Shown one piece after another: positions 11,433 to 37,477 of a stretch of 64,000 nucleotides of DNA (its first letter is position 1; the number at the start of each line of letters is the position of its first letter). The notes beneath the pieces were generated by a model. The model searched no databases, was not told where the DNA came from, and saw only the letters and a program-made list of their open reading frames with translations. The stretch is from Candidatus Omnitrophota bacterium (GTDB taxonomy: Bacteria; Omnitrophota; Omnitrophia; JAHJGZ01; JAFGJY01). The position numbers were made by a program, and so were the translations under genes. The stretch spans positions 1,996 through 65,995 of the forward strand of contig JAFGJY010000019.1 in NCBI GenBank assembly GCA_016928875.1. Direction: 5' to 3'.

Positions 11433-11436
11433 CTCT

Positions 11437-15215: not shown

Positions 15216-15261
15216 ACATTTAAAACACCGTATTCGACATGAAATGTAATTACATGATCTG

Positions 15262-17205: not shown

Positions 17206-18464
17206 AGCACCTCACTTGACAGACGACCACCTACTTCTATCATATATAGTGTTTTGTACGATAATACCGTGAGTACTTCATCAGGGGGATCAAGTTGTTT
17301 ACTGACGTGCAGAAGACCTTGTGCTATCTCATCATATGAACTGCTCTCTGATATTATCTTAGATAATCGTTTTTTTATTAATGTAGCCTTTCCCGATTGC
17401 ATGCGATATTTTTTCGTGATCTTGAGAATGATATCTACAAGCATGCTCCTGATCTTTATGTGTGCTTTATCGAGTTTGTCTTTAAGGTGATAACTTTCAG
17501 CAAAATAAATGTCTTTATATTCATATGTTGTAAACGTTACATGTGCACGAGAATGACGCAGAATAAATTCGAGCATTATCTTGAAATCGTTGAAACTCTC
17601 CCCTGGATAACCAATAATTAGAATAAGCGTGATCTTTGTCGTACTGCAATATCTTTCCATCCACGATAGAAATGACATAAAATCTTGCATCTTGAAATCT
17701 TTACCAACTAACTTTATAAGTCGATCAGTTACCGTAATTAATGATATACGCATTGAATCTATCTTGCCTGATTTCAATATTGGTCTTAACTCATCTGCAT
17801 ATGATAGAAATTCAGGGTTCATACAATCAAGTCCGATCCTGTAGTTGCCAGATATTTTCAATATTCTATTCAATAAGGCAGCTAAGTTCGTACCGATGTC
17901 CCATCCGTATATCGCAGTATTCTGAGCAACGAACGAAAATCTTTCATGCTTATCTTCGAGCCCCCTCTTAAACAATGCAATAATGTCGTCTGGATCAAGG
18001 CTGCGAAGCTGGCCAAAACCGTATTTATCAACGCAAAACGTACAATCTTGATAGCACCCTTTAGCAATATATATTGAGTATAAACCGAATTGATTCACGA
18101 ACGGTTGATTGATCGTGTTAAATGGATGTGTAACACCCAAAATAGAATCTAAGTGATCTAATTCTTCATTTAATAAAAATATGATGCCTTCTCTGTCCTT
18201 GATCAGACCCTTTCTCGACGAGAGCACGCCGGTAACAATAAATAGTGCGTTGCTATTCCTATTATTATTTAAATAATCGATAGTTTTTATGGAATCTTCA
18301 TAATAAAACAAACATGTATCACATATCACGACATCTGCTTTCTTAAGATCGTTCGTAAACAGATACTCATTTATCGTCAGGTAGTTTACGAGCAGGGTTC
18401 TTTCCAAAAAGTGTTCTTGATTACCTTCTGAGACACCTTGGAAATACACGGTTTTTGAACTCAT
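17202..18464 (-). CDS. MiaB/RimO-like methylthiotransferase-family radical SAM protein (divergent N-terminal domain)
   Basis: MTTase-like N-terminal domain (VVICDTC resembles MiaB VLLNTCS) but the first cluster Cys is replaced (FQGVSEGNQ versus TWGCQMN); rSAM motif AKGCYQDCTFCV matches MiaB EGCNKYCTFCV. Confidence 0.6.
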   Translation of the reverse strand: MSSKTVYFQGVSEGNQEHFLERTLLVNYLTINEYLFTNDLKKADVVICDTCLFYYEDSIKTIDYLNNNRNSNALFIVTGVLSSRKGLIKDREGIIFLLNEELDHLDSILGVTHPFNTINQPFVNQFGLYSIYIAKGCYQDCTFCVDKYGFGQLRSLDPDDIIALFKRGLEDKHERFSFVAQNTAIYGWDIGTNLAALLNRILKISGNYRIGLDCMNPEFLSYADELRPILKSGKIDSMRISLITVTDRLIKLVGKDFKMQDFMSFLSWMERYCSTTKITLILIIGYPGESFNDFKIMLEFILRHSRAHVTFTTYEYKDIYFAESYHLKDKLDKAHIKIRSMLVDIILKITKKYRMQSGKATLIKKRLSKIISESSSYDEIAQGLLHVSKQLDPPDEVLTVLSYKTLYMIEVGGRLSSEVL

Positions 18465-18503: not shown

Positions 18504-20039
18504 TTAAATACTACTACGCCGTGGGAGCATTCCGTTGATTTTGATCAATTTATCGACGTCATCCCTGGATATGGTACCAAGCGAATGTGTAAAGGGATAA
18601 ATAAATCTAAAAGGGAGTTCACCATCATAGGCATAGCGTATCCCATACTGTTCGGGGTCATTAAATACGGCATTATTCGGTGTCAGATAGTAAACGTTAA
18701 TGATAGGTTGTACATTTGGATACTCAACGAGCGAACAAACGGTATCCAGGGCTTCATCAATAGTTTCACTGGGAAGCCCGATCATTACCTGGCAACATAT
18801 TTTTAGCCCCACATCAGAGGCGTCCTTAAGGATACGTTTTGCAACATTTGTTCGTATGCCTTTCTTACAAAAGTTAAGGACTCGCTGGTTCATTGATTCA
18901 AGGCCGCAGACCAATTCGAAGCACCCTGCTTTCTTAATAAGCCTCAATATATCTTTGGTAATAGAATCTTCTAATCTCGAAAAAGACGACCATGCGATCT
19001 TGATATTTTCCCGAATGAGGGCATTACTGAACTCCTCCATTTGGCGTGGAGATAACACCGCATTTGAGATCAGTACGCCGTAACAATTATGCCTTTCCTT
19101 AAGTTCTTTAATGTCCCGTATCACTAATTCTATATTTTTTTCCCGATAGGGCACTTTAGGAAGCGGAAGGTCAACGCAAAATATACATTTATCCCAATAA
19201 CATCCTCTTGATGTTTCATAGGTAAGTGACAATTTGCCCTCTACATTTTTATGGTGCTCTAAGGGGATGCCTTCAAAATCAGGACACGGTAATGCGTCAA
19301 TGTCTTCCTTCGATCGCACGTTAGATGGCACAAAAGTATCGTTACGTTTGAATATCAGGTTCGGAACGTTCGACAGTGGCGTATTTCTCTTAATGGCATT
19401 TATAAGCGAGACCAAAGGGGTTTCACCCTCGGAATAGATCATGTAATCGTAAAACTCGCCGAAGTCACTTCGCTTGATAAGTTCTTCTTTGAATAAGGTT
19501 ATCCATTGGCCTCCCACAACTACTTTGATTTGCGGTATCTCAGATTTTATGACACGGCCGAAGGTGAAGGCGGAAATTACTTGTGAAGGTGCTGTAATGG
19601 ATATACCGACCATATCGTACTTATCATCTTTGATACGTTCGAGGATCTCTCTTTTAAAGAACGCTTTGAATGTATTTTCTTCTTCATCGTCGATATATCG
19701 AAACAAGTTATGTGAAGAAAGCAACTTCTCAGTAAAGTCAAAACGAGCGCCGAGTACCGGATCTACCGGTTCACTGAAACTATTTTGATTTCTATACTGA
19801 ATATCTTTGTAGTAATATACCTTATCCCGTATTTTCTCGTTCCTATACTGCTCTGTTACTATGTGATCGAGTTTATTATTGATAATATAGTTATAATATT
19901 TGTGATCTAAGTCGTCTTGATGCGCATCGATGCCCTGAGCTCTCAAAAATGCAAGAAGCGACGGTGTGCTGAGCGGCGGATGGCCTGTGTTAAATGCCGG
20001 AGGAATTAAGAGTAATATTTTAAATTCAGTGTTTTTCAT
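18504..20039 (-). CDS. B12-binding-domain radical SAM protein (class B-like)
   Basis: N-terminal Rossmann-like B12-binding-type region, then rSAM with the unusual spacing CYWDKCIFC (Cx4Cx2C); 511 aa. Confidence 0.55.
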   Translation of the reverse strand: MKNTEFKILLLIPPAFNTGHPPLSTPSLLAFLRAQGIDAHQDDLDHKYYNYIINNKLDHIVTEQYRNEKIRDKVYYYKDIQYRNQNSFSEPVDPVLGARFDFTEKLLSSHNLFRYIDDEEENTFKAFFKREILERIKDDKYDMVGISITAPSQVISAFTFGRVIKSEIPQIKVVVGGQWITLFKEELIKRSDFGEFYDYMIYSEGETPLVSLINAIKRNTPLSNVPNLIFKRNDTFVPSNVRSKEDIDALPCPDFEGIPLEHHKNVEGKLSLTYETSRGCYWDKCIFCVDLPLPKVPYREKNIELVIRDIKELKERHNCYGVLISNAVLSPRQMEEFSNALIRENIKIAWSSFSRLEDSITKDILRLIKKAGCFELVCGLESMNQRVLNFCKKGIRTNVAKRILKDASDVGLKICCQVMIGLPSETIDEALDTVCSLVEYPNVQPIINVYYLTPNNAVFNDPEQYGIRYAYDGELPFRFIYPFTHSLGTISRDDVDKLIKINGMLPRRSSI

Positions 20040-21076
20040 CGCTTTACAAAGGCCTCGTCTTTAAAAACCGAAGGGTAATAACAGTCATAACGATTGCATG
20101 TAACGTGAAACACCTTTTTAAATAACGTCTTACATTTTTGCACGTATTCTTTTTTTGAAATAGCATCATCGATCAAGAATCCTAATGATTCTTTAATAAA
20201 TAATGTTGCTTTTACTTTCTCTTCCAAGGGTAAATTTCTATCCAGGACTTTTAGGTTACGAGCGCCGATCCTCATTAAGTCATATATAGCACAGGCACCA
20301 CAGCCTTCGATGTCCCGGTCCATCCAATATTTAAACGGTATTGAAGAAGTTTTATTCTTAGTTTTATTTAAGAAGACTCTTTGTCGACGAAATCGGCTCC
20401 GACATCCGCCGGCAAAGCCGCGCTTCGATATACGTGAGGAGCTATAAAAAAAGATGTTTTCCCTTCCAATTCCCTCTTCATTCAATTCACCGGTATCTTC
20501 TTTGCAGTACGTGCAAAGGCCGTCTTCAAAATAACATTGGTCATGGATAATGAATATTTCATATTCCATGTCCGCGTCGTGTATTATCACGTCCCGGATT
20601 TCGCCGATTGTCATTGCTCTAGGTAAAACCACCCTCGTCGCACCCAATGATCTATAAAATTCCACAGCACTGCTATTACAAATGACAGCATCCGTACCGA
20701 TCACGACATCTTTACCACTCAGCACCGCCGGATCCATACGTATAAGCAATGCTGGGTCTGCAAATATTATCCCATCAGCGCCCGCAGACAATACGTCCCG
20801 AATAATACGCTCTGCCATCTCATATTGTTCATCTAAATAATAAAATGCGTTCATAGCAACGTGAACTTTAACACCATGCTTATGAGCTACAGAAATAGCG
20901 TTATCAAGATCAGCCAGTTTCGTAAAATTAGCATGTGACGAACGCTGGTTAATACTAAAGTTTTTATATCTCTTTCGCCAGCTATGCGGTTCTATGCCAC
21001 AGAACAACTCATCAGCCCCCGCCTCACACAACGGTTCCACTTCATAAATATGCGCTAAAGGAGATTTGATTCTCAT
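20036..21076 (-). CDS. peptidase U32 family protein, long UbiU-like form
   Basis: CEAGADELFCG...FTKLAD...HVAMNAF...ADPALL...GATRVVL and a C-terminal Cys cluster DQCYFEDGLCTYC; start set at the internal Met, giving an ATGA overlap. Confidence 0.65.
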   Translation of the reverse strand: MRIKSPLAHIYEVEPLCEAGADELFCGIEPHSWRKRYKNFSINQRSSHANFTKLADLDNAISVAHKHGVKVHVAMNAFYYLDEQYEMAERIIRDVLSAGADGIIFADPALLIRMDPAVLSGKDVVIGTDAVICNSSAVEFYRSLGATRVVLPRAMTIGEIRDVIIHDADMEYEIFIIHDQCYFEDGLCTYCKEDTGELNEEGIGRENIFFYSSSRISKRGFAGGCRSRFRRQRVFLNKTKNKTSSIPFKYWMDRDIEGCGACAIYDLMRIGARNLKVLDRNLPLEEKVKATLFIKESLGFLIDDAISKKEYVQKCKTLFKKVFHVTCNRYDCYYPSVFKDEAFVKR

Positions 21077-21798
21077 TGATTTCCGAAGCTCTTCATGCAT
21101 AATGGATCATTTCTTAACATGGTTACTTGACACTTTGTCTGCTCCTGGCATGCCCGGCAATGATTTAAACCACCGCTTACCCCGCTAAAAACACTGGCCC
21201 TGGCTTCTACTTCATGCCTGACCTCATCATTGTTTATAACTGCCAAGCACTTGGTCATATCGAATCGAAATGTTTCGAGTGTAGTGCCTGAAAAAGCGTG
21301 TCCCGGACATGCGTGATGGCATCGTAAGCAATCAGTATTACATGCGGGAAGGTATTCGGGCAAATTAGGTTTTTGATATCCTTTGATCTCATCGCAAAAG
21401 GCCCATGCAACTATTTTGCAATCAAAACCAAACTTAGGGTTCCAGATCAGATTATTATATCCTCGACAACCAAGACCCGCTTTAACAGCTGCCTCCTTTA
21501 GATCAAGCCTGATCATAAAAATGTTTTTTTTAAAATATGCTGTCAGAATATTTTGTGTTTTCGGCTTGATGTCATAATCATGGGCAACATCGCTATATTT
21601 TACAATGATCAGACTATTTTCTATTTTATTCCAATATTTCTCAGTCCCTTGGTCCAAAGGGATCACCCCTGAAGTAGAATATGCGTCTAGAAGCTTTAAC
21701 TTCATTCTCCCTAATCGCCATGTTTCTTCTTTGTCTAAAACACCGATCTGATATATATCTTCGCGAAAGAGGTTCTTTATTGTTTTGAACTCAATCAT
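21073..21798 (-). CDS. QueG-like 4Fe-4S dicluster protein
   Basis: AGLGCRGYNNLIWNPKFG (QueG-like block), CLRCHHACPG and CRACQEQTKC clusters; start set at MIEFKTIK to remove a 158-nt overlap. Confidence 0.55.
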   Translation of the reverse strand: MIEFKTIKNLFREDIYQIGVLDKEETWRLGRMKLKLLDAYSTSGVIPLDQGTEKYWNKIENSLIIVKYSDVAHDYDIKPKTQNILTAYFKKNIFMIRLDLKEAAVKAGLGCRGYNNLIWNPKFGFDCKIVAWAFCDEIKGYQKPNLPEYLPACNTDCLRCHHACPGHAFSGTTLETFRFDMTKCLAVINNDEVRHEVEARASVFSGVSGGLNHCRACQEQTKCQVTMLRNDPLCMKSFGNQ

Positions 21799-22864
21799 GG
21801 CATACACTACCCTTTGAATAGTCCATTTCTGCAAAGGCACGGCTTTCCGGTTCGCACGAGCTAAAATCATTATTAAAAAGCCACCCTCGTGCCGGGCACC
21901 ATTTACAATATGAAGCAAGTTCACAGGTATCACACTGATAATTATCACCAGGAGTTATACGGGCAACCAACTCTTTAAGCCGTTTCCAGCACCCTTCAAG
22001 CGAGCTGTCTAATATCTTATATTTAGGATGATCTATCATCAGGCACATCTTTAACTCACCCAGTGGCGTGATCGCAGCCTGCGTTCTCCCCACCCCGCAT
22101 TTGAAAAACTCATGCTGAGTGTATTTTTCGTGGATCATTGACCGGTCACAATCAGGATCGTTAGACCGCTTCTTTTGGGACGAAGGATCCGGCGCCTCTA
22201 TGTTATCTGAGGTATACTTCAAAGGTCTTCGATACTTAAATGGCTCGTATGATCCATCGAGGCACGGAGAAAGCAACGCATCTACACGATGCTGTGCTTT
22301 GAGTGAATGCGCAAATTCCTGTATCTGGTCTATCTCGGTTTCATTGCTGTTTAAAACACACGTCTTGAATCCTAAATGCATTCCCTTAGTATGGAGTAAC
22401 TTTATTACATTAAATACCTTGTCTCGTGAGCCTGGTGCTCGACTAACAGACTCAAAGGTCTCACGACGAATGCCTGGTATGGTTATATCTATTAGATTTG
22501 GGCGTAACAGCGCTAATTGCTCCGCGATATGTTCGTCGATCAATGATCCATTAGTATAGAGAATGATCTGAAATCCTAATTCTTTTGCGTACCAAAGGAT
22601 GTCTACTATATCCTCTCTTACGAACGGTTCTCCTCCGGTAAAGCCCAAGTAAAGACAGCCTATGGCTGAAAGTTGATCTAATATATAAAAGACCTCTGTC
22701 GTTGAGAGCTCTTTATACTTTCTGTAACTGTACGGAATATAACAATGACCGCACTCGAAATTGCAGCGATAGGTTAGTTCGAACATTACGCGTAAAGGAA
22801 AGCCTTTATCATGTGCAACATTATGGATACGTTTTCTGAACTCATCATACTGTTGAGATTTCAT
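21791..22864 (-). CDS. radical SAM/SPASM domain peptide-maturase-like protein
   Basis: CNFECGHC, FTGGEPFV, SPASM array CDTCELASYCKWCPARG. Confidence 0.8.
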   Translation of the reverse strand: MKSQQYDEFRKRIHNVAHDKGFPLRVMFELTYRCNFECGHCYIPYSYRKYKELSTTEVFYILDQLSAIGCLYLGFTGGEPFVREDIVDILWYAKELGFQIILYTNGSLIDEHIAEQLALLRPNLIDITIPGIRRETFESVSRAPGSRDKVFNVIKLLHTKGMHLGFKTCVLNSNETEIDQIQEFAHSLKAQHRVDALLSPCLDGSYEPFKYRRPLKYTSDNIEAPDPSSQKKRSNDPDCDRSMIHEKYTQHEFFKCGVGRTQAAITPLGELKMCLMIDHPKYKILDSSLEGCWKRLKELVARITPGDNYQCDTCELASYCKWCPARGWLFNNDFSSCEPESRAFAEMDYSKGSVCHD

Positions 22865-24255
22865 TGTACTACCTCATGAGCTTTTGCCTTACGTATGCAC
22901 TTATCTATTTCTATGCTGCTCAGCTCCGTTCTACCCATATTTCTATAACATCGCGCGAGAGCAAGTGCTACGCAGGCATCATCCGGATTTATCTTTTCTT
23001 CCTTTTTGTATTCTTTTATTGCCCCTGTATATTCTTCCATTTTTTCATAACAAAGCCCTAAGAAGAAATGAGCTCCTTTTGCACCGTTCCTTAATTCCAA
23101 GAAACTCCGCGTATACTTTATCGCATCCATATATTGCCCGACATTAAAACAGGCTCTACTTACCAATTCATAAATATATTCTCTATTGCTGCCTGACGAT
23201 GTTTTTAAGATATTTTCATATACCCGTATGGCGTTTAATTCGTCCTGCTTCCGATCTTGTCCTGAGAAGTCTCGATTAACAACCGTTGCCTTGTGAGCGA
23301 GCATAGTGCAGTATCGACAAGCACTGCAGTTACCATCACAAGCGATCATCGCATTAAAGAAATCGCTGTCACGCAGTGTCTTGTAATCGATGTACTCAAA
23401 ATACACAAGTCCGGGACTATCTAATAGTTCTAAGAGATTACCGTTGAACTCCCGGTTAATATAAGATTCAAGACATAATTGGATCCGGTTCGTGGGAAAT
23501 ACACGCGTTGACAATTTATAATAATCAATAAAGGATTCGTAGTAATTCAGTGCCTCAGGCGGTATAAATGGTACACTAAAAACCTTTTCCTTCTTTCGCT
23601 CATAGATCTCCGTACAGGGATTATCGGCAGCAATACCTTCTGCCACCTTATCAGTGATACTGCTATGGTGCGACAGATTATTATAATGCATAACACGATA
23701 TGGGCAATTACGTAAACATCCTTCATTAAGCATTAAACGTATTTTTAGCGCTGTCCGTTCTTTTATCTGTTTGATCAAGGGTATGTTCCTATTTATATCT
23801 CTGTCAATGGTGAGCACATCAACGCCCAGTTCTTTAAGATATACGGCGTGTTCAACGGTTTTAACGTAGCAATTCACTGACGACTCTATGCGAATATCAC
23901 TGATATGTGTCCGTATCTTTGAAATATACACAGGATTTGTAACCACGACTGAACCAAGGCCCATGTCGCGTAATTCCTTTATATAATCCACTAATCTCTC
24001 AAAATATCTCTTATCGAGACCAACACCTCCCTCGCATGTTGCGTTTAATAAAAGTTGAGAGGTGATATTGAGAGAAGTGCACTTCGCGATGATGTTAGGT
24101 ATCTCTTGGGTATAATTGTGTGCCGGTGAAGTGATTCTTCCTGAACCGATGTATTGGACAGGTGCGGGAAAGTAAAGCGCTTCGATATTCTCTTGATAAG
24201 AACTTAGAAGGTCAAGCAGCTGAGCATCATGGTTATAACCAATTGAGAACTTCAT
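22861..24255 (-). CDS. U32-like TIM-barrel protein with C-terminal TPR repeats
   Basis: N-terminal region resembles the U32 barrel (LKELGVDVLTIDRD...NEGCLRNCPY); the C-terminal ~120 aa are TPR-like (MGRTELSSIEIDKC..); weak call. Confidence 0.35.
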   Translation of the reverse strand: MKFSIGYNHDAQLLDLLSSYQENIEALYFPAPVQYIGSGRITSPAHNYTQEIPNIIAKCTSLNITSQLLLNATCEGGVGLDKRYFERLVDYIKELRDMGLGSVVVTNPVYISKIRTHISDIRIESSVNCYVKTVEHAVYLKELGVDVLTIDRDINRNIPLIKQIKERTALKIRLMLNEGCLRNCPYRVMHYNNLSHHSSITDKVAEGIAADNPCTEIYERKKEKVFSVPFIPPEALNYYESFIDYYKLSTRVFPTNRIQLCLESYINREFNGNLLELLDSPGLVYFEYIDYKTLRDSDFFNAMIACDGNCSACRYCTMLAHKATVVNRDFSGQDRKQDELNAIRVYENILKTSSGSNREYIYELVSRACFNVGQYMDAIKYTRSFLELRNGAKGAHFFLGLCYEKMEEYTGAIKEYKKEEKINPDDACVALALARCYRNMGRTELSSIEIDKCIRKAKAHEVVQ

Positions 24256-24261: not shown

Positions 24262-25353
24262 CTATCTTTGTTTTGAACAATGTAATGCTTCCCTATACCG
24301 TTTATTCTCTTCAGCGAGTCGGCAATAGTATTCAACGGGTGCTTCTTCGTCACCAGTCTCAAGCAGCGCCTTTGCCGGACAGGTAAAACAGAGAGCTTTT
24401 AGATCACAAAACTGACATTTTGAGTTGGTCTTAAACTCCTCTTTTAACAATTGCGGGAATGTGTGATAAAAGCCTTCTTTGAACGGCGTTGTTCTTAGAT
24501 CTACGCTAAATTTATCAGTGAGGATACAGAACTTAAGCCTTCCATACGGATTGACAAAAAACTGCCTCATCCAACTATTGCATTGATACAAATAACGTCT
24601 ATCCCTTTGGAGGTCTTCGTATCCACTATGCAGACATTTTTTGTATTCCTTCCAGATATCGGGATCATCTTTTCTGGCTTCCATGAGCTCATCAAAAGAA
24701 AGTCGATATCGACACGACGAAGTATCACCATTGAGCCGGGGCGAAATTATCGGGTCATATTTAAAGCGATATGCATTCTTAGACAGCTTCCCGATATTCT
24801 GTTCCGTCCATTCTTTTATCTTCGGGATTTCGTCTTTATTGACAGAAAGGTAATTTGATTTTATCATCAAATAAAGCCCACCATGTATCATTTTGTTGAT
24901 TGCCGTCATACACCGCTCAAAAGATCCCTCAACCTGCGTCACCGTTTCATAGGTATCCTTTGTTATGCCATTTAAGGTCACCTCTATCAGCATAGGAGGA
25001 GATTTTATTAAATATTCTATTACTGTATCACTTACGGCATGAGCATTGGTAAATAAAGTGATGATAAAGCCCTTATCCTTCGCATACGAATATAGCTCAA
25101 GAAAATCATCTCGTAATGATGGTTCGCCGCCACTCATAGTGAGCCAGACGCAACCTTCTCTCTGTATTTCATCAAAGATCTCCTTCCACTCATTGAGAGA
25201 TAATTCTTGGCTTTTATCTTCGTTCCCCTTACAGTAACAATGAATACAATCGAGATCGCAACGGTAGGTAAGTTCAATATGACCATGCAACGGTTTATGA
25301 TCCCATTTATTGGCTACTGTCTTGTGGAAGTCACCAAAATCGATGTGCTTCAT
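24262..25353 (-). CDS. radical SAM/SPASM domain peptide-maturase-like protein
   Basis: CDLDCIHC, MSGGEPSL, SPASM array CQFCDLKALCFTCPAKA; lies directly downstream of a precursor and RRE. Confidence 0.8.
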   Translation of the reverse strand: MKHIDFGDFHKTVANKWDHKPLHGHIELTYRCDLDCIHCYCKGNEDKSQELSLNEWKEIFDEIQREGCVWLTMSGGEPSLRDDFLELYSYAKDKGFIITLFTNAHAVSDTVIEYLIKSPPMLIEVTLNGITKDTYETVTQVEGSFERCMTAINKMIHGGLYLMIKSNYLSVNKDEIPKIKEWTEQNIGKLSKNAYRFKYDPIISPRLNGDTSSCRYRLSFDELMEARKDDPDIWKEYKKCLHSGYEDLQRDRRYLYQCNSWMRQFFVNPYGRLKFCILTDKFSVDLRTTPFKEGFYHTFPQLLKEEFKTNSKCQFCDLKALCFTCPAKALLETGDEEAPVEYYCRLAEENKRYREALHCSKQR

Positions 25354-25493
25354 ACAACCCCTTTATCTTTTGCCGACTATGATGGTATGTAAGATAAGCC
25401 CAATGTGGTCGATGTTCTAGCGGAGACGTTATTATTAGATGGTAAGAAATTATAACTGCACCGTAACCTGTACTGCTTACTATTCAAACGATC

Positions 25494-25745
25494 TTAGGAA
25501 CTTGCTGTACCTGAGGTATGAGCAAAGCCGTAGTATCCCGTAAGTGGATTAGTATAGCACGGTTTGTGGTTCGTTGAGTCTCTCCCCCACGTGCACATTG
25601 CACGGTCAATATAGCTACTGTGTGCGATCCAGCTTCGGTGTGTCCATTGCATCCCGATCGCCATGCACGTACACGCGAGCACTGCCTGCTCGGGATTAAG
25701 CTTTACTCTGGTGATCTCAGGTTTGAATTTTGGTTTTTTTGCCAT
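25494..25745 (-). CDS. putative RiPP precursor peptide X (distinct family)
   Basis: 83 aa with a strong AGGAGA RBS and an 11-nt gap from the PqqD gene; leader KPEITRVKLNPEQAVL then a Cys/Trp/His-rich core CTCMAIGMQWTH..C.W..C. Confidence 0.55.
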   Translation of the reverse strand: MAKKPKFKPEITRVKLNPEQAVLACTCMAIGMQWTHRSWIAHSSYIDRAMCTWGRDSTNHKPCYTNPLTGYYGFAHTSGTASS

Positions 25746-25756
25746 TTTTTATCTCC

Positions 25757-26044
25757 TCATATTGACTTAAGAGCCTGTATTTCCCGCAGTTCTTCTAAAT
25801 ATTTTTGCATTTCTTCTTCTATTTCCTCTGGTGTGGCGTCATATTTCTTTAAGATCTCTGCTTTTATATCAGCCACCGTTTTTTTTCCATCGATCAATCC
25901 CCACACCTCCGAAGCAACCTTGTTCAGCGTATAGATGCAATCAATATCGTTGGAAGATTTATAGATCGGAAGAAGAATCGTCTCATCATCGATCACTCTT
26001 GTTACCATATCTTCGTTCTTACGCAAAATCGTGGTATTTTCCAT
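25757..26044 (-). CDS. PqqD-family RiPP recognition element (stand-alone RRE)
   Basis: 95 aa; IYTLNKVASEVWGLIDGKKTVADI matches the PqqD core. Confidence 0.75.
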   Translation of the reverse strand: MENTTILRKNEDMVTRVIDDETILLPIYKSSNDIDCIYTLNKVASEVWGLIDGKKTVADIKAEILKKYDATPEEIEEEMQKYLEELREIQALKSI

Positions 26045-26057: not shown

Positions 26058-27545
26058 TTATCCTATTACATTATTTGTACGTATTTTTTTAATTTGCTTA
26101 TCTATCATTTGCAGCTTTCTGGCAAGTTCTCGCGAGCCATGGCCGGTCTTCTTGCCTTTCTTGTTTATACTTTGTTTTCTACGTAACTCATTAAATTTAA
26201 TGCGAATAAGAGTAATCATATCATCTGAAATGGTATAATTCAAACCTATTTTTAGGATCCTAATTATCGCATTGTCGATATTGTAGCCAAACCTTATTGT
26301 GTCAGAATATTTTTTAACAGCTGCTTCATAATTCCCCTCTTTTTCATATATCTGGGCTACCATATAATAACACTCAGGTGCCATCGGCTCAATAGCCAGA
26401 TAGGACAGCAACAATTTCTTTGCGATAGAATATTCCTTTAACCCAAATTCTGCCTGCCCCAAACCTAAAAGGGCTTGAGATGTTGCCCTAGAAAATAGTT
26501 TATCTCGACTGGCTTTGAGCGCAGAAGAAAATAACATTCGAGCTTTGATAAACTCTTTATCTTTTAATGCAATAAACCCCAAGCCACAAAGACAAAAGGA
26601 ATTCTCAGGATCGGCCGCATTGATCCTTAAGAACTCTTTGTGCGCCTTGGAGAATTTACGCACACCAAAATACAACGGCCCATAATTATTATCCCCGGCT
26701 CGATAAGTATGATTTAATGTAATAGCCTTCTTATAAAGATCTTTTTTATCAGAAGAAGTAAAGAGAGAGAAATAGTGTGCCGCCTCAGAATTCCGTAGAA
26801 AACGCTTTCTAAACTGTTTCGGGGAGAAAAGATAGGCGATTTCATCACCAAAATGTTTATAAACCATAGGTGTATATCCGCCGTTTACAGAATAGGCGAT
26901 AGTAATGATTTCCGGATCTAGTATCTTTTGTTTAAGTCTTTCCACTAAACAGTTCGGTGAGATCCATGGTTTGCGTTTCCCTATGTTTGTCGTATTTTCA
27001 GCATTCACAAGACTGTCTACAACCAAATAATCAGTATCAATGTCTAGTAATACATTCCTCTGCAAAAGCGGTAATTTTTCTAATGTAGATATAATGAACT
27101 TTCTTCCAAATAACTCTGTTTCGAATATCCCTTGGTTCAATGTGTAAGATAAACGCCCACGGTTGGACGGATCTCGTTTTGCTAAATTCCTCAGTATTCT
27201 TTTTATAAATACGGTCGATTCTTTAAATTCCTTCGATCCTCCGGGGACGATCCAATAAAAATCCTTGACGATTTCCGCCTCGATCGCCGGGTAAATATAG
27301 TTACCAATATTGGTCTGCTTATCAAGATCACTTTGGTACTGTTTGAAAGCGAGTGTATACTCTAGTTTTTGCTTCAATTCCTTTACGCTTGTTGCCGTAT
27401 TGAATATTGTATCTATTGGTTGAGCCTGATGAAATCCAAAATCCATATGAGCATCGATATGTACCAGATCAAGGCCTTTGATCTGGTTATCTCTCCAGAC
27501 CTTCAATGCCTCATCATGATCTTCAATAAGGAATATTTTAGCCAT
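26058..27545 (-). CDS. hypothetical protein with N-terminal UPF0489/arginase-fold-like HIDAHxD motif and C-terminal TPR repeats
   Basis: LVHIDAHMDF motif near the N-terminus; TPR-like repeats in the last ~200 aa; weak. Confidence 0.3.
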   Translation of the reverse strand: MAKIFLIEDHDEALKVWRDNQIKGLDLVHIDAHMDFGFHQAQPIDTIFNTATSVKELKQKLEYTLAFKQYQSDLDKQTNIGNYIYPAIEAEIVKDFYWIVPGGSKEFKESTVFIKRILRNLAKRDPSNRGRLSYTLNQGIFETELFGRKFIISTLEKLPLLQRNVLLDIDTDYLVVDSLVNAENTTNIGKRKPWISPNCLVERLKQKILDPEIITIAYSVNGGYTPMVYKHFGDEIAYLFSPKQFRKRFLRNSEAAHYFSLFTSSDKKDLYKKAITLNHTYRAGDNNYGPLYFGVRKFSKAHKEFLRINAADPENSFCLCGLGFIALKDKEFIKARMLFSSALKASRDKLFSRATSQALLGLGQAEFGLKEYSIAKKLLLSYLAIEPMAPECYYMVAQIYEKEGNYEAAVKKYSDTIRFGYNIDNAIIRILKIGLNYTISDDMITLIRIKFNELRRKQSINKKGKKTGHGSRELARKLQMIDKQIKKIRTNNVIG

Positions 27546-27628: not shown

Positions 27629-28957
27629 TCAGGACTCATCTAAGAAATACCATTTAAAGAATTCTTCTCGGAATTTATCCCTCTTTTCAAAGAGGACATT
27701 GTTCGTAGGGACCTTGCCTTCTTCCCGCGCACGGTCATCTACTGCCACATGTGAGGATAATTCTTGTTCTATGAGTGAATGATACTCAATATGATGAATC
27801 CCTGAAAATATCTTCAAGAAGAACAAAGCATACGGAGTGTAAAAAGAGATAAAATCAATTGGACGTTTGTTCCTGTATGACTCCCAGTCCCCAGAGATCA
27901 TTTTTACTTTCTCTGTGGCCAAAAGGGCCACTAGTTTATCGATAATATTTGAATACTCATATTTTTTAACTGAAGATCGTGCGTTTTTCTCCATAACCGC
28001 GACTTCTTTTCGATTCTGCAGATAATGAGAAATCCAATGTATCCACTCTTCTTTATTAATATCAACATCATACGCAGAAATAGATTTAAGGGGGATGATC
28101 ACACCATTTATACCGTTCGTAATAAATTCTGAATTAGCAGCCCAATCAGATGCAATAACCGGCAATCCACAGGCCAATGCCTCAATATTGACAAGGCTAA
28201 ACGTTTCGTATCGTGCAAAGGTAGGGTTTAGTAAGAATAAGCTTCTGCTGAGCATCTCCAGCTTTTCGATCCCAACACGCAATCCTTCAAAGCGGACATA
28301 TTCTTCAAGATGTTTTTCCGCAATACGATTGTTAAGCGTAGAAACGTAATCGGACGGCGTGGTATCATCAAGATAATCTCCGTACAAGGGACCAATGATC
28401 TTTAGATGTGCCGGACCTGCCTTTGCAATGATCTCATCCCACCATTCAATCAAGAATGTGAGTCCTTTATCATAAGAAAGACGTCCTAAAAAGCATACAC
28501 TGTTTTCCTTCTTTTGTTCTTTTACTGTACGGATTTCTTCAAAATCAAGGCCGTAGGGTATAATATGAACAGTGGCTCTTTTTGTGAGTTTTTCAAATAA
28601 TCGTTTGCAGTATGCAGAGGGAACAATTACTACATCATGGTTTTCTAACAGTGGAAGAGCGGCGGCCATCCTGAAGAAAGATATGTAGATTGTGTGGACC
28701 CTAACAAGGTAAGGCACGGTGTAGCTACACTTTTTTCTTACAATAAGCGATAACAACAAATATTCTTGATCATCAATGTAAAGATAGTTAATATTCCTCT
28801 CTAAAAGCCTTGCAATGGCAGATTCAATTTGATTCGAATTCGATATTTCTTCCTTGAGCAGCTCGACCTTCCTCCCGAGATATTCAAAAAAGGTGCTTTC
28901 GATCGATTTCATCGAAATGAATGTAACTGACGATCTAACAACAGTACCTATTTTCAT
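27629..28957 (-). CDS. glycosyltransferase family 4 (GT-B)
   Basis: C-terminal EALACGLPVIASDWAANSEFI motif typical of GT4/GT1. Confidence 0.75.
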   Translation of the reverse strand: MKIGTVVRSSVTFISMKSIESTFFEYLGRKVELLKEEISNSNQIESAIARLLERNINYLYIDDQEYLLLSLIVRKKCSYTVPYLVRVHTIYISFFRMAAALPLLENHDVVIVPSAYCKRLFEKLTKRATVHIIPYGLDFEEIRTVKEQKKENSVCFLGRLSYDKGLTFLIEWWDEIIAKAGPAHLKIIGPLYGDYLDDTTPSDYVSTLNNRIAEKHLEEYVRFEGLRVGIEKLEMLSRSLFLLNPTFARYETFSLVNIEALACGLPVIASDWAANSEFITNGINGVIIPLKSISAYDVDINKEEWIHWISHYLQNRKEVAVMEKNARSSVKKYEYSNIIDKLVALLATEKVKMISGDWESYRNKRPIDFISFYTPYALFFLKIFSGIHHIEYHSLIEQELSSHVAVDDRAREEGKVPTNNVLFEKRDKFREEFFKWYFLDES

Positions 28958-30823: not shown

Positions 30824-32587
30824 TTACCCATTTTTACTTAATTGTTCTTCCATTTGATTACGAAAAAAATCTCTGTATACCTGGCTTCCTGATAATAGTT
30901 GCGCATGAGTACCAACTTCTATTTTCCCCTGATTTAAAAAATATATCCTTTCTGCGTCTTTCACTGAAAACAATCTATGTGAAATAATTATAGTGTTTAA
31001 ACCTTGCCTTTTATCTCGTAAGGCCCGAAATATCTTTTCCTCAGTATGTAAATCTACGGCAGAAGTGGCTTCGTCGAGAATAAGCAAGTCAGGGGCTCTC
31101 ACTATGGCTCTCGCCAACGCGATCCGCTGTTTAAGACCTTGTGATAAACGACAGGCGTCTTCACCGATAAAACTATCATAACCATCGGGCAATTGGCTAA
31201 TATAATCATGCACAGAGGCGATCGATGACGCGGCTTCTATTTCTTTCCGGCTCATTCCTTTTAATCCATAGGTGATGTTTTCGCATATTGAAACATCAAA
31301 TAGAAAAGGTTCTTGAGTAGCAATAGTAATGCGTTTGCGTAATGATGTTAATGTTATGTCCTTCAAGTTTAGCCCGTCTAAAAGTACTTCGCCCGCCCAA
31401 GGCTCGTATAGCCTGATCAATAAGTTCATTAACGTGGTTTTACCACTGCCAGAAGGGCCAACGAGCGCCACCCAGGAGCACCCGGGAACATCTAAATTAA
31501 GCTCGTTAAATATTGGCCGATCTTTCTGATATCCAAATGATACATTTTTAAAAGAGATATCTCTATGTATCGACTTTAATGTTTTTGCACCGGCACTATC
31601 CTTTATCTGTGGTTCTATATCCATGACCTCGAATAATTTATCGAACGATACCGCTTCCTGAATAAGATACCCGAATCTGTCCCCCATAGCCTTGAATAAA
31701 CAACCAAGTTGAGTCAAATAAAGCATTACTGCTGTATAGCTGCCGATGCTTATTTTATTATCAATTATGAGCATGCCTCCATAAAACGCAACTCCGCCAA
31801 ATATAGCTTTGGATAAAATAGAAGAACCCACAGAGTTAATGATTGACCAACGAAAGCTTTTGATCCCCCATCGAATATTTTTGATCAAATGTTTTGTGTA
31901 TGTTCGCCTTTGAAAAGACTCGAGGCCAAAAGCCTTAACGATCAGCATCTTGGAGAAACCTTCGTGAATGATGTGGGCCAACTGTGCACCATGCTTCCAA
32001 ACTTCCTCATAAAGTGGCTTCAATTTATTCTGCAGATATATATTGGGAATTATAAATAGAGGACATACAATCAGGAAAAATATAGTCATCCGAAGATCGA
32101 TCCATAATGAAATTACTAATATGATCGAGATCTTGCAAACATCAATCAAGAAAGATGGGCACTGTTCAAGTATAATATTGCAAAGTGTCTCCGTATCAGA
32201 AAGTCTGAATATATTTTCGCCTATTGATTTTGACCGAAAATATTCAAGATCCAGGGAGAATAACTTCTTAATATACTTATCTGCGATATTAAGTCTTATC
32301 TTTATTGATATCCTATTTTTTATGACATCTCGCATAACACCCACAAACATGCTAAAGAGAAATACTATCACTCCGACAACGGATATATCAAGAAATGTAT
32401 CTATATCTTTAGTTAAAAAAGCCTTATCTATGAACAACTTTGAAATTAATGGCCCCACCAAATAGAATATTGAATTGACCAATCCAAATAAGAACAAGAT
32501 GATAATATTTCTCTTGTAAGCGTAGAACACTTTTAAGATGCGATGTGTTGTATTTACTTTATTCTGTTTTGCTAATGTGCAATTCAT
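30824..32587 (-). CDS. ABC exporter, fused permease/ATPase (type I exporter; no C39 peptidase domain)
   Basis: 6-TM N-terminal half; Walker A GPSGSGKTT, LSQGLKQRIALARA, Walker B LILDEATSAVD. Confidence 0.85.
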   Translation of the reverse strand: MNCTLAKQNKVNTTHRILKVFYAYKRNIIILFLFGLVNSIFYLVGPLISKLFIDKAFLTKDIDTFLDISVVGVIVFLFSMFVGVMRDVIKNRISIKIRLNIADKYIKKLFSLDLEYFRSKSIGENIFRLSDTETLCNIILEQCPSFLIDVCKISIILVISLWIDLRMTIFFLIVCPLFIIPNIYLQNKLKPLYEEVWKHGAQLAHIIHEGFSKMLIVKAFGLESFQRRTYTKHLIKNIRWGIKSFRWSIINSVGSSILSKAIFGGVAFYGGMLIIDNKISIGSYTAVMLYLTQLGCLFKAMGDRFGYLIQEAVSFDKLFEVMDIEPQIKDSAGAKTLKSIHRDISFKNVSFGYQKDRPIFNELNLDVPGCSWVALVGPSGSGKTTLMNLLIRLYEPWAGEVLLDGLNLKDITLTSLRKRITIATQEPFLFDVSICENITYGLKGMSRKEIEAASSIASVHDYISQLPDGYDSFIGEDACRLSQGLKQRIALARAIVRAPDLLILDEATSAVDLHTEEKIFRALRDKRQGLNTIIISHRLFSVKDAERIYFLNQGKIEVGTHAQLLSGSQVYRDFFRNQMEEQLSKNG

Positions 32588-33024: not shown

Positions 33025-34791
33025 TCACCTAAACTCTATCTGCGAGCTAAAGACACGCTTAAAGTTCTCGGATGCAGCTGTTAACTCTTGCGCTCCGATC
33101 GTCTCGACGGTCCGCGGGTCTACGATCAGCATGATCTTCTCACAATGACGGATAGCTGACAATCGATGCGAAATAACGACAATAGTCGCACTCGGTATCA
33201 GTTGCCGTACATTGGCAAATATATCCGCTTCGGTTGCACTGTCAACGGCGGAGAGCCCCTCATCCATAATTAGAAATTCCGGCTTTTTCAGTAATGCCCG
33301 CGCCAGCGCAATACGCTGCTTTTGTCCTTGCGATAGCTTCACCCCTTCTTCACCGATCATCGTCTTATACCCGTCCTTAAGCCCCGTTATGAATGTATGT
33401 ATCTCACTCATACGACATACTTCTTCGATATCAGAGAACGATGCTGGCAAATGTCCGAAACGCACATTATCCTCAATAGAACTGTTCATAAGAAGCGGTT
33501 GTTGCATTACCATTGCGGCTTTTTCATAGAATGATTTTTTATTAAGGCACCTAAGGTCATTATCACCGATCATGATCGAACCCTCTTGCGGAGATAACAA
33601 ACCAAGCAATAAATATGCTAATGTGGTCTTGCCACATCCGGAATGTCCGACGATCCCCAATGACTCGCCGGGCTGTATCGAGTAGTCGATGTGCTCTAAT
33701 ACCGATTTTCCTGCGCGATACGCGAACGACACATGTTTGACCCTTATTGTCTTATCCAGTAGCGAATCTATCAAAACGCCTTTCTCTGTTGTGACTATGT
33801 TATGTTCATCATGTGCCATGATCTCATTGACCCGTTTGCAGCTTGCCGCTGTAACGACGAGCCTCCGTAACATGAAGGAAACGTGAGACTGTAGCGATAC
33901 GATCTGTCCGGCATAGGCAAGTATTGCGCTCAGCGTCCCAAGCGTGATATCTCCCCGAATGACGCGCACGCATGCATAGATACCTATTACACCAACAAGA
34001 CCGCGCGTTATGACATTGTGTGAGATCATGAGAATAAATTCGAAACGTGCTATCTCGATCGATCGGCGTATGTGCGTTACCAGATCACCGATAATGGAAT
34101 GCTTGATGTACCGCTCGCGATTAAATGCCTTAATGAGGAGAACATGTGCGAATAGTTCGCGAACACCCATTAAAATACGTTCAAAGTATTCCCACAATCC
34201 CGTGTGAAGACTGCGGATCTTTTCATGCGTAAGGAAGATCGGCAATGCAATGATCGGAGCGGCTATGATAAAGAACAGCCCGACTGTGCGATCAAGGATA
34301 AATATAAAATAAAATGAGAAGACCATGCGCGGCAACATCTCGACGAATTCGATCGGGATCGATGTCAACGATTCAGAGATCCGGTCAGTATCGAACATGA
34401 TCCTGTTGGTACCCTGGCTGGAATCGTTATCTATATGGAAACTGATGTCGCGTTGCAAATAACAATTTATGACCTTGTGCCGCAACAAAAACGCGACCTT
34501 GTTCTTCACTATGGTTTGATACATTTGCCGCCATTGTGTGGCCAACAGAGACACACCGCTCAATACTGCGCCAGTTATCGCGATCATAAAGAACAATTGA
34601 AAATCCTTTTCCATTATTCCCTTATCGATCCCCTGACGCATAAACATCGGCAAAAGCAACGTTATACATAAGGGGATCATCGAGGCGAAAGAAAGCATAG
34701 CAAGCGCACGTCGATATCGCCTCACGAAAGGAATGAAGCGCAAACATTCGACGAGTGAATCTTTAATGGATACGATCGAGCGTAGGTTCAT
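33025..34791 (-). CDS. ABC exporter, fused permease/ATPase
   Basis: GHSGCGKTT, LSQGQKQRIALARA, LIMDEGLSAVD; 6-TM N-terminal half. Confidence 0.85.
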   Translation of the reverse strand: MNLRSIVSIKDSLVECLRFIPFVRRYRRALAMLSFASMIPLCITLLLPMFMRQGIDKGIMEKDFQLFFMIAITGAVLSGVSLLATQWRQMYQTIVKNKVAFLLRHKVINCYLQRDISFHIDNDSSQGTNRIMFDTDRISESLTSIPIEFVEMLPRMVFSFYFIFILDRTVGLFFIIAAPIIALPIFLTHEKIRSLHTGLWEYFERILMGVRELFAHVLLIKAFNRERYIKHSIIGDLVTHIRRSIEIARFEFILMISHNVITRGLVGVIGIYACVRVIRGDITLGTLSAILAYAGQIVSLQSHVSFMLRRLVVTAASCKRVNEIMAHDEHNIVTTEKGVLIDSLLDKTIRVKHVSFAYRAGKSVLEHIDYSIQPGESLGIVGHSGCGKTTLAYLLLGLLSPQEGSIMIGDNDLRCLNKKSFYEKAAMVMQQPLLMNSSIEDNVRFGHLPASFSDIEEVCRMSEIHTFITGLKDGYKTMIGEEGVKLSQGQKQRIALARALLKKPEFLIMDEGLSAVDSATEADIFANVRQLIPSATIVVISHRLSAIRHCEKIMLIVDPRTVETIGAQELTAASENFKRVFSSQIEFR

Positions 34792-36826: not shown

Positions 36827-37294
36827 TTATTCTACTTCACATTGTGCGTGGTCTGTCTTCCTGAGCCGCGCATGCGACAATTTTCTATGCAACCACTTAA
36901 ACGGCGACAATGTCTTGATCCGCGCATATATTTTAGAATTATTCAAGAAAACGAACAATTTCTGTGCCCGCTTTATAAATCTTCCACTATCTTCGATCGG
37001 TATCTCATCTGTGCCGCGGTATGCCGCGATGACCTTCCCTTTTATCTTATCATACGGGACACGGAAGGCATCGGCTTGCACCAGTGTCGAATCCGGTTTT
37101 GTCATCAGTGAACCATCGGGGTTTATCGACAATATCCTATGGGTTATCAACTTCGAATTATCACTGTTTTCAAAGACGACAATATCGCCTATTGCGAACG
37201 TCACATAGTCGGCTTTCTTGATCAACAGCGCATCGCCGATCTTAAGCAGCGGCTCCATGCTGTTACCGATAAGTTTGGCGGACATGTATTTCAT
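36827..37294 (-). CDS. S26-family signal peptidase I-like serine peptidase
   Basis: 155 aa; canonical GNSMEP nucleophile motif, then GDIVVFE and ITHRIL blocks. Confidence 0.65.
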   Translation of the reverse strand: MKYMSAKLIGNSMEPLLKIGDALLIKKADYVTFAIGDIVVFENSDNSKLITHRILSINPDGSLMTKPDSTLVQADAFRVPYDKIKGKVIAAYRGTDEIPIEDSGRFIKRAQKLFVFLNNSKIYARIKTLSPFKWLHRKLSHARLRKTDHAQCEVE

Positions 37295-37360
37295 GGTGAC
37301 ATCTCTGCTTGGCTATGATTACTGCTCATCGTTGGTAGACGCGGCAACTTCGGATACAAT

Positions 37361-37436: not shown

Positions 37437-37477
37437 ACTAGGACCGGCCATGGCAATTACGACAATAAACAAGGAAC

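Follow-up and report, generated by a model that had tools for sequence, protein, structure and literature searches.

Pathways in which radical S-adenosylmethionine (rSAM) enzymes and a RiPP recognition element (RRE) process ribosomally made peptides with post-translational modifications (RiPPs) are known. SynChlorMet, defined in TIGRFAMs/NCBIfam by comparative genomics, comprises the precursor ScmA, the HprK-like ScmC, the PqqD-like ScmD and the rSAM-SPASM enzymes ScmE and ScmF; a full-text literature search for the name SynChlorMet returned no paper, and we know of no experimental characterization of it. Several rSAM enzymes per pathway occur in thuricin CD and ruminococcin C biosynthesis, and in prochlorosins one enzyme set processes a multitude of hypervariable cores that share a conserved leader. 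In the lasso precursors paeninodin and pseudomycoidin, HPr-kinase homologs phosphorylate the C-terminal Ser, and an "uncharacterised NTP transferase" then puts a hexose on the C-terminal phosphate (PMC8498205, PMC6993621). Here we describe a stretch of 64,000 nt (the window) from Candidatus Omnitrophota bacterium (GTDB lineage Bacteria; Omnitrophota; Omnitrophia; JAHJGZ01; JAFGJY01; GenBank GCA_016928875.1, contig JAFGJY010000019.1, positions 1,996-65,995 of the forward strand), which very probably carries a RiPP cassette with an open reading frame (ORF) of 83 residues as its substrate. Judged from sequence, the described systems nearest to it are SynChlorMet and GeoRSP by parts list, and sacti- and ranthipeptides by likely chemistry.

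The head of the cassette is formed by three minus-strand genes, listed in the order of transcription:

25757..26044, minus strand: stand-alone PqqD-family RRE, 95 residues (Pfam PqqD, E=1.2e-14)
25494..25745, minus strand: predicted precursor peptide, 83 residues (ribosome-binding site AGGAGA, invariants of the family alignment)
24262..25353, minus strand: rSAM/SPASM enzyme A, 363 residues, no fused RRE (Radical_SAM, E=1e-18)

From the end of the PqqD stop codon (25757) to the ATG of the ORF (25745) there are exactly 11 nt; in the upstream sequence TGAGGAGATAAAAA-ATG, the AGGAGA shares bases with this stop codon and lies 6 nt before the ATG. The rSAM gene starts 140 nt past the ORF stop. This gap folds no better than shuffled sequences (z = +1.39), and no terminator-like site was found in it. 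The original prediction, made from the DNA sequence alone, had proposed a unit of RRE, precursor and rSAM/SPASM enzyme in which the precursor was unrelated to known ones. Its coordinates and all three details of spacing and ribosome-binding site proved correct, Pfam and NCBIfam searches with the 83-residue peptide gave no match, and dozens of Omnitrophota loci show the arrangement again.

The comparative set was obtained by scanning one genome per species and consists of 68 loci (designated L with a number), which were searched with the window proteins; most are titled Omnitrophota metagenome-assembled genomes (MAGs), and some are labelled otherwise (Elusimicrobia, Planctomycetales, others). 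Counts for the cassette refer to the 41 non-redundant loci holding a core rSAM gene, with two precursors added from the window-protein search, and rest on fragmentary MAG contigs and simple ORF calling. The search for homologous trios, suggested along with the original prediction, found the precursor in all 41 loci, PqqD in 36, and an rSAM gene directly after a precursor in 30. The ORF is kept wherever the enzymes occur, and no locus showed it absent or disrupted beside a conserved rSAM gene. The recurrent gene order is UPF0489-TPR, PqqD, precursor, A-type, then B-type rSAM, 318-residue protein (window 11437..12393), C-type rSAM and ATP-binding cassette (ABC) exporter. Orthologs of enzyme A (350-506 bits) are present in 38 of the 41 loci, usually directly after the precursor, those of enzymes B and C in 33 and 36, respectively, and all three rSAM orthogroups together in 30. 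The 318-residue protein was found in 36 loci, and an ortholog of the exporter 30824..32587, closing the cassette, in 24. Unbiased all-against-all clustering of neighboring ORFs exposed additional recurrent members. An S24/S26-type peptidase (Pfam; 25/41) is usually the first gene, just before UPF0489, and an NTP_transf_5 protein (Pfam) occurs in the same number of loci; the two are fused in one ORF in nine loci, and many absences fall at contig ends. In about 18-20 loci, PqqD is immediately preceded by the UPF0489-TPR gene. Thus, the predicted trio is real as a unit but was drawn too narrowly, being the head of a larger cassette with three SPASM rSAM enzymes, a kinase, a peptidase, NTP_transf_5, UPF0489-TPR and ABC exporters. 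The locus has two marks of the general RiPP class with a discrete RRE, namely a short precursor of conserved leader and variable core beside modifying enzymes, and a PqqD-like RRE.

The leader of the window peptide spans approximately residues 1-24 (MAKKPKFKPEITRVKLNPEQAVLA); the core begins with C25-T-C27, has its third conserved Cys at C51 and ends in ...TASS. A Candidatus Omnitrophica MAG (JW938_01595, 74-kb contig) has an annotated protein identical to the peptide, and an ortholog with 81% identity also exists; most other matches resemble it over the first ~30 residues only, at 75-93% identity. The alignment of 51 members shows F7, P9, I11, L16-N-P-E-Q-A21, L23, C25 and C27 to be invariant, as is a further Cys downstream of these (C51 in the window peptide), and the final Ser (S83) is present in at least 90%. 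With a profile built from this alignment, 872 cluster representatives (50% identity) were retrieved at E<=1e-3, and 678 at the stricter E<=1e-10, almost all from Omnitrophota. The consensus leader KPKFKPEITRVKLNPEQAVLxCxC is nearly invariant, and the core behind it, with its third Cys fixed, is hypervariable. Over the candidate phylum, the leader is kept at roughly 80-90% identity, followed by hundreds of cores unrelated to one another. The leader motif is absent from the searchable literature, and literature searches on Omnitrophota rSAM RiPPs, SynChlorMet/GeoRSP and U32 proteins in RiPPs yielded no account of the precursor family. Because of the 872 representatives, the strong ribosome-binding site, the synteny with PqqD and rSAM genes, and the PqqD-precursor fusions described below, the 83-residue ORF is, on sequence evidence, a real gene of a large, undescribed precursor family. 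The original prediction had likened the leader to a degenerate double-glycine type; this candidate was rejected, as the leader has its own almost invariant, distinct motif and the exporters of the locus have no C39 peptidase domain.

Core statistics were compiled for 256 non-redundant type-1 (CxC-type) cores. Of these, 92% end in Ser and 6% in Thr; CxC is followed by Tyr, Phe or Trp in 88%, and a Gly stands three residues further on in 64%. With a length of 45-60 residues, the core contains no more than 3-4 Cys; about two thirds have a fourth Cys, 11-16 residues past the third, and in a separate set of 167 cores the next Cys stands 16-26 residues after CxC in 133. The distance from the last Cys to the C-terminus is regular across the family. 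Conservation in the core is confined to the three Cys, the aromatic residue after CxC and the C-terminal Ser, the remainder being hypervariable, with no positional conservation of Trp or Lys and no conserved Arg. At the junction of leader and core, V occupies position -3 in at least 90% of the 51 aligned members, and A, S or T position -1 in 80% of the 256 cores.

A second precursor subtype has a "CC" junction, the leader KKWxKPExTR[IV]KLNPEQAVLSCCD... and shorter cores with four Cys, and its genes are arrayed in tandem, at most six in a row (L050, L052, L053, L055 and L060; genomes JAQVMQ and JAQTSA). In the window itself, tblastn found no paralogs of the peptide. Up to 22 precursor genes were counted in one genome, one of those with the second subtype; as many precursor genes are distant from any enzyme gene, this distribution suggests that one enzyme set may serve many cores.

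The PqqD-family protein scores 54.8 bits against a Pfam cut-off of 23.4, and its homologs (287 clusters at 61-72% identity) are named "PqqD family protein" in Omnitrophica MAGs. At three separate loci of one Omnitrophota MAG (JAHJHM), PqqD and precursor are fused into one ORF of 240-280 residues, consisting of the PqqD domain, a Lys/Arg/Glu-rich linker, the full leader and a core:

L019:9539-10261: PqqD-precursor fusion ORF
L024:7151-7990: PqqD-precursor fusion ORF
L040:8868-9623: PqqD-precursor fusion ORF

None of the three has an rSAM gene within the fetched flanks, and no natural PqqD-precursor fusion is found among the 120 matches listed from the PqqD homolog search; to our knowledge, a fusion of RRE and precursor has no precedent. 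Since they occur as fused ORFs at three loci, PqqD and the precursor are, by this sequence criterion, directly linked in function.

Two further rSAM enzymes accompany enzyme A:

21791..22864, minus strand: rSAM/SPASM enzyme B, 357 residues (Radical_SAM, 7e-22)
15262..16299, minus strand: rSAM/SPASM enzyme C, 345 residues (Radical_SAM, 3.6e-20)

The motif CxxxCxxC and the complete SPASM Cys motifs (C-terminal 7-Cys) are readable in all three proteins. Enzyme A carries CDLDCIHC and the SPASM-type C-terminal pattern C-x12-G-x4-C ... CxxCx5CxxC ... C, and aligns full-length to the SPASM-type NCBIfam models NirJ2 (residues 29-338) and ACGX rSAM/SPASM (27-334). As the three enzymes start directly at the rSAM core, they have no fused RRE. 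The best PDB matches, confined to the rSAM core, were SkfB for A (5e-13), PqqE for B (3.5e-10) and SkfB for C (3e-9), the nearest solved relatives being peptide-modifying SPASM/twitch enzymes; entry 5v1q, which we take to be SuiB, matched enzyme A at only 2e-6, again over the rSAM core only. The models of sacti- and ranthipeptide maturases (AlbA, SkfB, StsB, PapB and the SCIFF maturase) all score far below their cut-offs: for enzyme A, AlbA reaches 47.9 of 850 bits, SkfB 52 of 300 and StsB 53 of 625; for enzyme B, StsB reaches 76 of 625; and for enzyme C, StsB reaches 76 of 625 and PapB 54 of 340. With all curated maturase models this far below cut-off, the type of reaction is not readable from homology.

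The other products of the cassette in the window are as follows:

11437..12393, minus strand: HprK/PEPCK-fold P-loop kinase, 318 residues, proposed for the C-terminal Ser (motifs and fold)
26058..27545, minus strand: UPF0489 (ureohydrolase/peptide-arginase-like) domain and TPR, 495 residues (Pfam UPF0489, 1.4e-9, and TPR)
30824..32587, minus strand: ABC exporter half-transporter, 587 residues, no peptidase domain (ABC_membrane and ABC_tran)
33025..34791, minus strand: second ABC exporter half-transporter, 588 residues (ABC_tran and ABC_membrane)
36827..37294, minus strand: small S24/S26 (SipW/Sec11-like) serine peptidase, candidate leader peptidase (Pfam S24/S26, 5e-4)
39766..40959, plus strand: NTP_transf_5 nucleotidyltransferase (Pfam PF14907, E=1.1e-39)

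The 318-residue protein has a P-loop, GKSGDGKTT (G176-x-S-G-x-G-K182), and N199-D200-D201 of an N-D-D-R motif, both invariant in its homologs. Its NCBIfam matches are weak (HprK_rel_B, the best, 5e-5 and 22.5 against 200 bits; ScmC 1.5e-3). A search of structures was needed because the PDB sequence-profile search was not decisive. An AlphaFold2 model (mean predicted local distance difference test score 82) retrieved PEPCK (4e-8) and HprK/P (2e-5) in Foldseek with probability 1.00, at TM-scores of only 0.3-0.44. Modelled fold and motifs together lead us to read the protein as a probable HprK-fold kinase. The protein database assigns kinase-like proteins of this kind to PF27840, a family newer than the Pfam copy used.

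The UPF0489 protein matches the NCBIfam peptide arginase model FlmR/OhkR (2e-15, 56.9 bits, cut-off 350) over its N-terminal 175 residues only, and a PDB sequence search matched only its TPR half. The residues H10, H29/D31/H33/D35 and D168/D170/D172, which putatively bind metal, are kept in 21 homologs and are of the kind typical of ureohydrolase metal sites. The peptidase of the window shows the motifs GNSMEP and THR and matches NCBIfam sigpep_I_arch at 4e-13 (49.5 against 51.85 bits), while the S24-type peptidases of the cassettes in general keep GxSMxP and xHR[LV] of the SipW/Sec11 kind.

The following pathway, comprising the cassette, Cys-anchored links, Ser phosphorylation, leader removal and export, appears to us probable on balance. 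First, PqqD would bind the leader segment PEITRVKLNPEQAVL and hand the core in turn to the three RRE-less rSAM/SPASM enzymes. These would use C25, C27 and C51 as anchors for intramolecular cross-links, giving a fixed scaffold with variable loops; the links would most likely be Cys thioethers of the sacti/ranthipeptide kind, since Cys are the only fixed residues of the core and are regularly spaced. For Cys-anchored cross-links as such, read from these sequence patterns, we see slightly less than an even chance. Comparison by eye of Cys number with rSAM number in the few loci without enzyme B gave no obvious tracking, the cases being very few. Second, the HprK-like kinase would phosphorylate the C-terminal Ser on its side chain, and NTP_transf_5 may attach a sugar to the Ser phosphate, as in paeninodin and pseudomycoidin. 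A C-terminal phospho-Ser, possibly glycosylated, is predicted because the conserved Ser, the HprK-fold kinase and NTP_transf_5 mirror the lasso logic; by this analogy we slightly favor the phosphorylation. Third, the SipW-like S24 peptidase could cut the leader after V22-L23-A24 and leave an N-terminal Cys-x-Cys, its candidacy resting on the fit of the V22-L23-[A/S/T]24 junction to the -3/-1 rule of type I signal peptidases. Finally, the ABC pair would export the product.

Several observations weigh against this pathway. Every modification in it is deduced from gene content. The rSAM enzymes score far below the cut-offs of every characterized thioether, C-C, epimerase and cofactor maturase model, and the Pfam SPASM model gives no significant match on any of the three. 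In the window peptide, CxC is followed by Met instead of the aromatic residue usual in the family. At the sequence level the kinase does not join its proposed family (Hpr_kinase_C E=0.16; HprK E=0.39 in the PDB profile search). A hydrophobic signal-peptide core is missing from the leader, which makes leader removal the weakest step, and cleavage by the S24-type enzyme is doubtful. Moreover, the S24 and NTP_transf_5 genes of the window lie 9-14 kb upstream, on the far side of a GDSL-TPR gene, two glycosyltransferase-like genes and the exporters. There they stand next to a second, ScmA-like cassette (see below), which they may serve equally well.

It is unlikely, but worth weighing, that the same cassette performs other chemistry, forming C-C or C-O cross-links (as in streptide, darobactin and the triceptides) or epimerizing residues, while the Cys form disulfides or bind metal. 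The predominance of an aromatic residue after CxC and the Trp-, His- and Tyr-rich core of the window peptide would suit such a reading, and AhbD, NirJ and MftC outscore StsB, SkfB and AlbA, a generic result that does not favor sactisynthases. However, the aromatic residues, save at that one position, are not conserved in place, whereas invariance in the core is limited to Cys, and the spacings between third and fourth Cys and from the last Cys to the end are regular. WgkB stays at 61-72 bits for the three enzymes against a cut-off of 650, and neither DynA nor YhhB is among the 25 best NCBIfam matches for any of them. The original prediction had called the Cys-, Trp-, His- and Tyr-rich core a plausible substrate for thioether or C-C (Trp/Tyr) links of the streptide or darobactin type; the C-C part finds no support, as the abundance of Trp, His and Tyr is not a feature of the family and the enzymes score far below the cut-offs of the characterized cross-linking families. 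Conservation within the family points to Cys instead of Trp or Tyr.

Fourteen genes from 25353 down to 10530, approximately 15 kb, overlap or are no more than 39 nt apart, a spacing that points to a single operon. Its accessory genes, interleaved with the conserved ones (rSAM A, U32-TPR, rSAM B ... rSAM C, U32 ... kinase), and a glycosyltransferase gene between the exporter genes and UPF0489 are listed below:

27629..28957, minus strand: GT4 glycosyltransferase (Glycos_transf_1, 3.5e-20; homologs in 4 loci)
22861..24255, minus strand: U32-like domain and TPR, 464 residues (Peptidase_U32, 2.5e-6, and TPR; homologs in L005 and L022)
21073..21948, minus strand: Cys-rich QueG-like Fe-S protein (weak QueG, 1.8e-3; Fer4_16, 0.013)
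20036..21100, minus strand: U32 family protein, UbiU-like, 354 residues (Peptidase_U32, 1.5e-20; NCBIfam UbiU, 2e-19, below cut-off)
18504..20039, minus strand: B12-binding rSAM protein, RiPP C-methyltransferase-like, 511 residues (B12-binding and Radical_SAM; homologs in 10 loci)
17202..18464, minus strand: MiaB/RimO-like rSAM methylthiotransferase, 420 residues (TIGR00089, 3.9e-36, 125 against 251 bits; RimO, 4.6e-27)
16303..17205, minus strand: U32 partner protein, 300 residues, no family (beside the U32b type in L003, L010, L017, L029 and L037)
14160..15302, minus strand: U32 family protein, 380 residues (Peptidase_U32, 2.3e-30)
13285..14163, minus strand: QueG/reductive-dehalogenase-like 2x[4Fe-4S] protein, 292 residues (QueG, 3.5e-12, and RDH, 4e-11, both below cut-offs; Fer4_16)
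12415..13284, minus strand: second U32-partner paralog, 289 residues (beside the U32a type in L006, L010 and L037)
10530..11477, minus strand: sixth rSAM protein of the operon, 315 residues (Radical_SAM, 9e-13; weak matches to geopeptide and PapB maturases)

The U32-TPR gene begins 6 nt after that of rSAM A and overlaps that of rSAM B. With its GTG start, 21073..21948 extends 158 nt into the rSAM gene upstream, and this start was probably mis-set in ORF calling. The B12-binding rSAM protein matches TIGR03975 at 2e-39 (135 against 282 bits). The two partner proteins (16303..17205 and 12415..13284) are paralogs with 37% identity and no Pfam or NCBIfam match, and the UbiU-like protein 20036..21100 accompanies the 16303-type partner in other loci; the partners may be UbiV-like counterparts of UbiU-like U32 enzymes. 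U32 modules, the B12-binding rSAM and rSAM proteins of the 10530 type (L002, L020 and L064) recur inside other cassettes of the precursor family, while no counterpart of the QueG-like Fe-S and MiaB-like genes was found in the 68 related loci. We know of no report of U32-family pairs resembling O2-independent hydroxylases or a MiaB/RimO-like methylthiotransferase in RiPP biosynthesis, nor of methylthiolation in a RiPP. Trp and His together make up 6.8% of cores in U32-containing loci compared to 3.3% elsewhere (Mann-Whitney p=0.006, corrected neither for the nine tests made nor for phylogeny; exploratory), and 12.5% of the window core; these compositions hint that the U32 proteins could act on aromatic side chains. 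The U32 proteins, their partners, the Fe-S proteins, the B12-binding rSAM, the MiaB-like enzyme and the sixth rSAM, gained by the operon of the window, would probably decorate its unusually Trp/His/Tyr-rich core.

Within the run of minus-strand genes (from ~46 kb to 2 kb), G+C content is 0.38-0.41 at 10-34 kb, compared to 0.45-0.52 beyond ~34 kb and 0.42-0.50 before 10 kb; the low value of the RiPP block could reflect horizontal acquisition or merely local composition. Large polytopic membrane glycosyltransferase-like proteins were also noted, one of the LA_3751/LA_3752 family in the window (34818..36455, minus strand) and one of PMT type at L043:6612-8276. They lie between the S24 peptidase and the remaining cassette, with GT4, GT2 and GDSL-TPR genes nearby, and these neighborhoods hint at glycosylation tied to the pathway.

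A second RiPP cassette, SynChlorMet-like, lies directly upstream (36827..46189), on the minus strand except for 39766..40959 (plus strand). Its genes, and a related one at the end of the main operon, are:

45530..46189, minus strand: SAM methyltransferase
45230..45487, minus strand: Cys-rich peptide (weak ScmA match)
43240..44346, minus strand: HprK-like protein (ScmC, 5e-8)
42839..43087, minus strand: Cys-rich peptide (weak ScmA match)
41551..42636, minus strand: HprK-like protein (ScmC, 3e-19)
41228..41473, minus strand: Cys-rich peptide (weak ScmA match)
38578..39627, minus strand: rSAM/SPASM protein, ScmE-like (166 against 400 bits)
37478..38581, minus strand: rSAM/SPASM protein, ScmF-like (337 against 400 bits)
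10036..10275, minus strand: fourth Cys-rich peptide, 79 residues, right after rSAM 10530..11477

The four Cys-rich peptides form a family with five invariant Cys; three of them each precede an HprK-like gene, one of these genes being broken. Two short ORFs (69 and 101 residues; 44458..45166, minus strand) follow the peptide 45230..45487, the 69-residue one with a degenerate P-loop and a DD motif, and together they look like the broken third HprK-like gene. As no ScmA-like Cys-rich peptide was found in the 68 related loci, this peptide family stands outside the conserved cassette.

These peptides bear on a reading less likely still than other chemistry, namely that the accessory block acts on the ScmA-like peptide 10036..10275 or on a non-peptide substrate, and that the pathway is restricted to the conserved core cassette. 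The position of that ORF directly downstream of rSAM 10530..11477, its membership in the four-member family and the lack of counterparts of the QueG-like and MiaB-like genes in other loci would fit. On the other hand, the accessory genes are not appended to the core genes but interleaved with them, stop and start codons overlapping; the U32 modules, B12-binding rSAM and 10530-type rSAM proteins recur in cassettes with the KLNPEQAVL leader and no ScmA-like peptide; and the Trp and His excess concerns the cores of the U32 loci.

It is highly improbable that the product is a small redox cofactor like PQQ or mycofactocin, excised from C-x-C-[YFW]-x-x-G, with the variable tail as a disposable spacer. 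PqqD together with SPASM rSAM enzymes is a hallmark of both these pathways, the CxC-aromatic motif has a fixed place, and MftC and PqqE are among the better matches; these nevertheless stay below threshold (PqqE 68-88 against 381 bits, MftC 84-104 against 265, PQQ_PqqD 39.1 against 46). Such a product would not account for up to 22 divergent precursors per genome, for the conservation of the third Cys, the Cys spacing and the C-terminal Ser, or for a dedicated ABC exporter, and clustering of neighboring ORFs revealed no conserved cofactor-dependent dehydrogenase nearby. Finally, a chance ORF or unmodified small protein, with the rSAM enzyme acting elsewhere, would agree with the lack of Pfam and NCBIfam matches but is practically excluded by the family size, ribosome-binding site, synteny and natural PqqD fusions.

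Returning to the cross-linked, exported peptide, a bolder version may be considered, which we think unlikely to hold in full: a phylum-wide combinatorial library in which one RRE and three SPASM rSAM enzymes would process at least 872 precursors, up to 22 per genome and some fused to their own RRE, on a Cys scaffold, with the C-terminal Ser capped by phosphate and possibly a sugar before export, and in which the window version would be further decorated by U32 pairs and the MiaB/RimO-like enzyme. If the proposed pathway is right, the system would offer peptide engineering a natural platform for rSAM cross-linking that tolerates varied substrates, a test case for the ordered hand-over of a substrate from one RRE to several enzymes, and a first handle on secreted molecules of the Omnitrophota, an uncultured group. 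The operon of the window, with six rSAM and three U32-type proteins, is a particularly rich target, in which peptide methylthiolation or O2-independent peptide hydroxylation might come to light.

Among known systems, SynChlorMet shares with the Omnitrophota cassette a small precursor, a stand-alone PqqD, several SPASM rSAM enzymes and an HprK-related P-loop protein. It has, however, two rSAM enzymes instead of three and lacks UPF0489-TPR, the S24 peptidase and NTP_transf_5, and its precursor has a Cys-rich low-complexity core, in contrast to the long conserved leader and the hypervariable core with few Cys found here. The SynChlorMet models remain below cut-off throughout (ScmD 36.6 of 100 bits, ScmE 60 of 400 for rSAM A, ScmF 52-69 of 400, ScmC 17.9 of 125), and the peptide has no ScmA match; in the adjoining cassette of the window, the ScmF-, ScmE- and ScmC-like proteins reach 337, 166 and 69 bits, respectively. 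GeoRSP likewise shares PqqD, a SPASM rSAM and an HprK-related kinase (A/B), but belongs to another taxon and has another precursor, and its models reach only 25.4 of 100 bits (geo_PqqD_fam), 49-79 of 400 (GeoRSP_rSAM) and 22.5 of 200 (HprK_rel).

With sacti- and ranthipeptides (subtilosin/AlbA, SKF/SkfB, thuricin CD/TrnC and TrnD, ruminococcin C, SCIFF, PapB) the cassette has in common RRE-dependent SPASM/twitch rSAM enzymes, in thuricin CD and ruminococcin C also several per pathway, and a Cys-bearing core, and SkfB is the closest solved structure for two of its three rSAM enzymes. In those systems the RRE is fused, whereas here it is a separate protein and the thioether chemistry is putative. 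The paeninodin (PadeK) and pseudomycoidin (PsmK/PsmN) pathways share an HPr-kinase-family enzyme, a nucleotidyltransferase and a terminal Ser as the only conserved C-terminal feature; this pair of enzymes has so far been documented only on lasso peptides. Lasso pathways possess a cyclase and a B protein, while the Omnitrophota cassette has neither, its scaffold enzymes are rSAM proteins, and its kinase is alike at the level of fold only. The invariant leader, the hypervariable cores and the many precursor genes remote from enzymes resemble prochlorosins, which, however, use LanM and not rSAM/SPASM enzymes with a discrete RRE in anaerobic hosts. Against this background the general architecture is unsurprising. 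Since every component stays below the cut-offs of the curated RiPP families, we regard the cassette, as far as its sequences can tell, as a new family within the known architecture of RRE-dependent rSAM RiPPs, the novelty lying in the precursor family and in the combination of enzymes, with three SPASM enzymes on one free-standing RRE.

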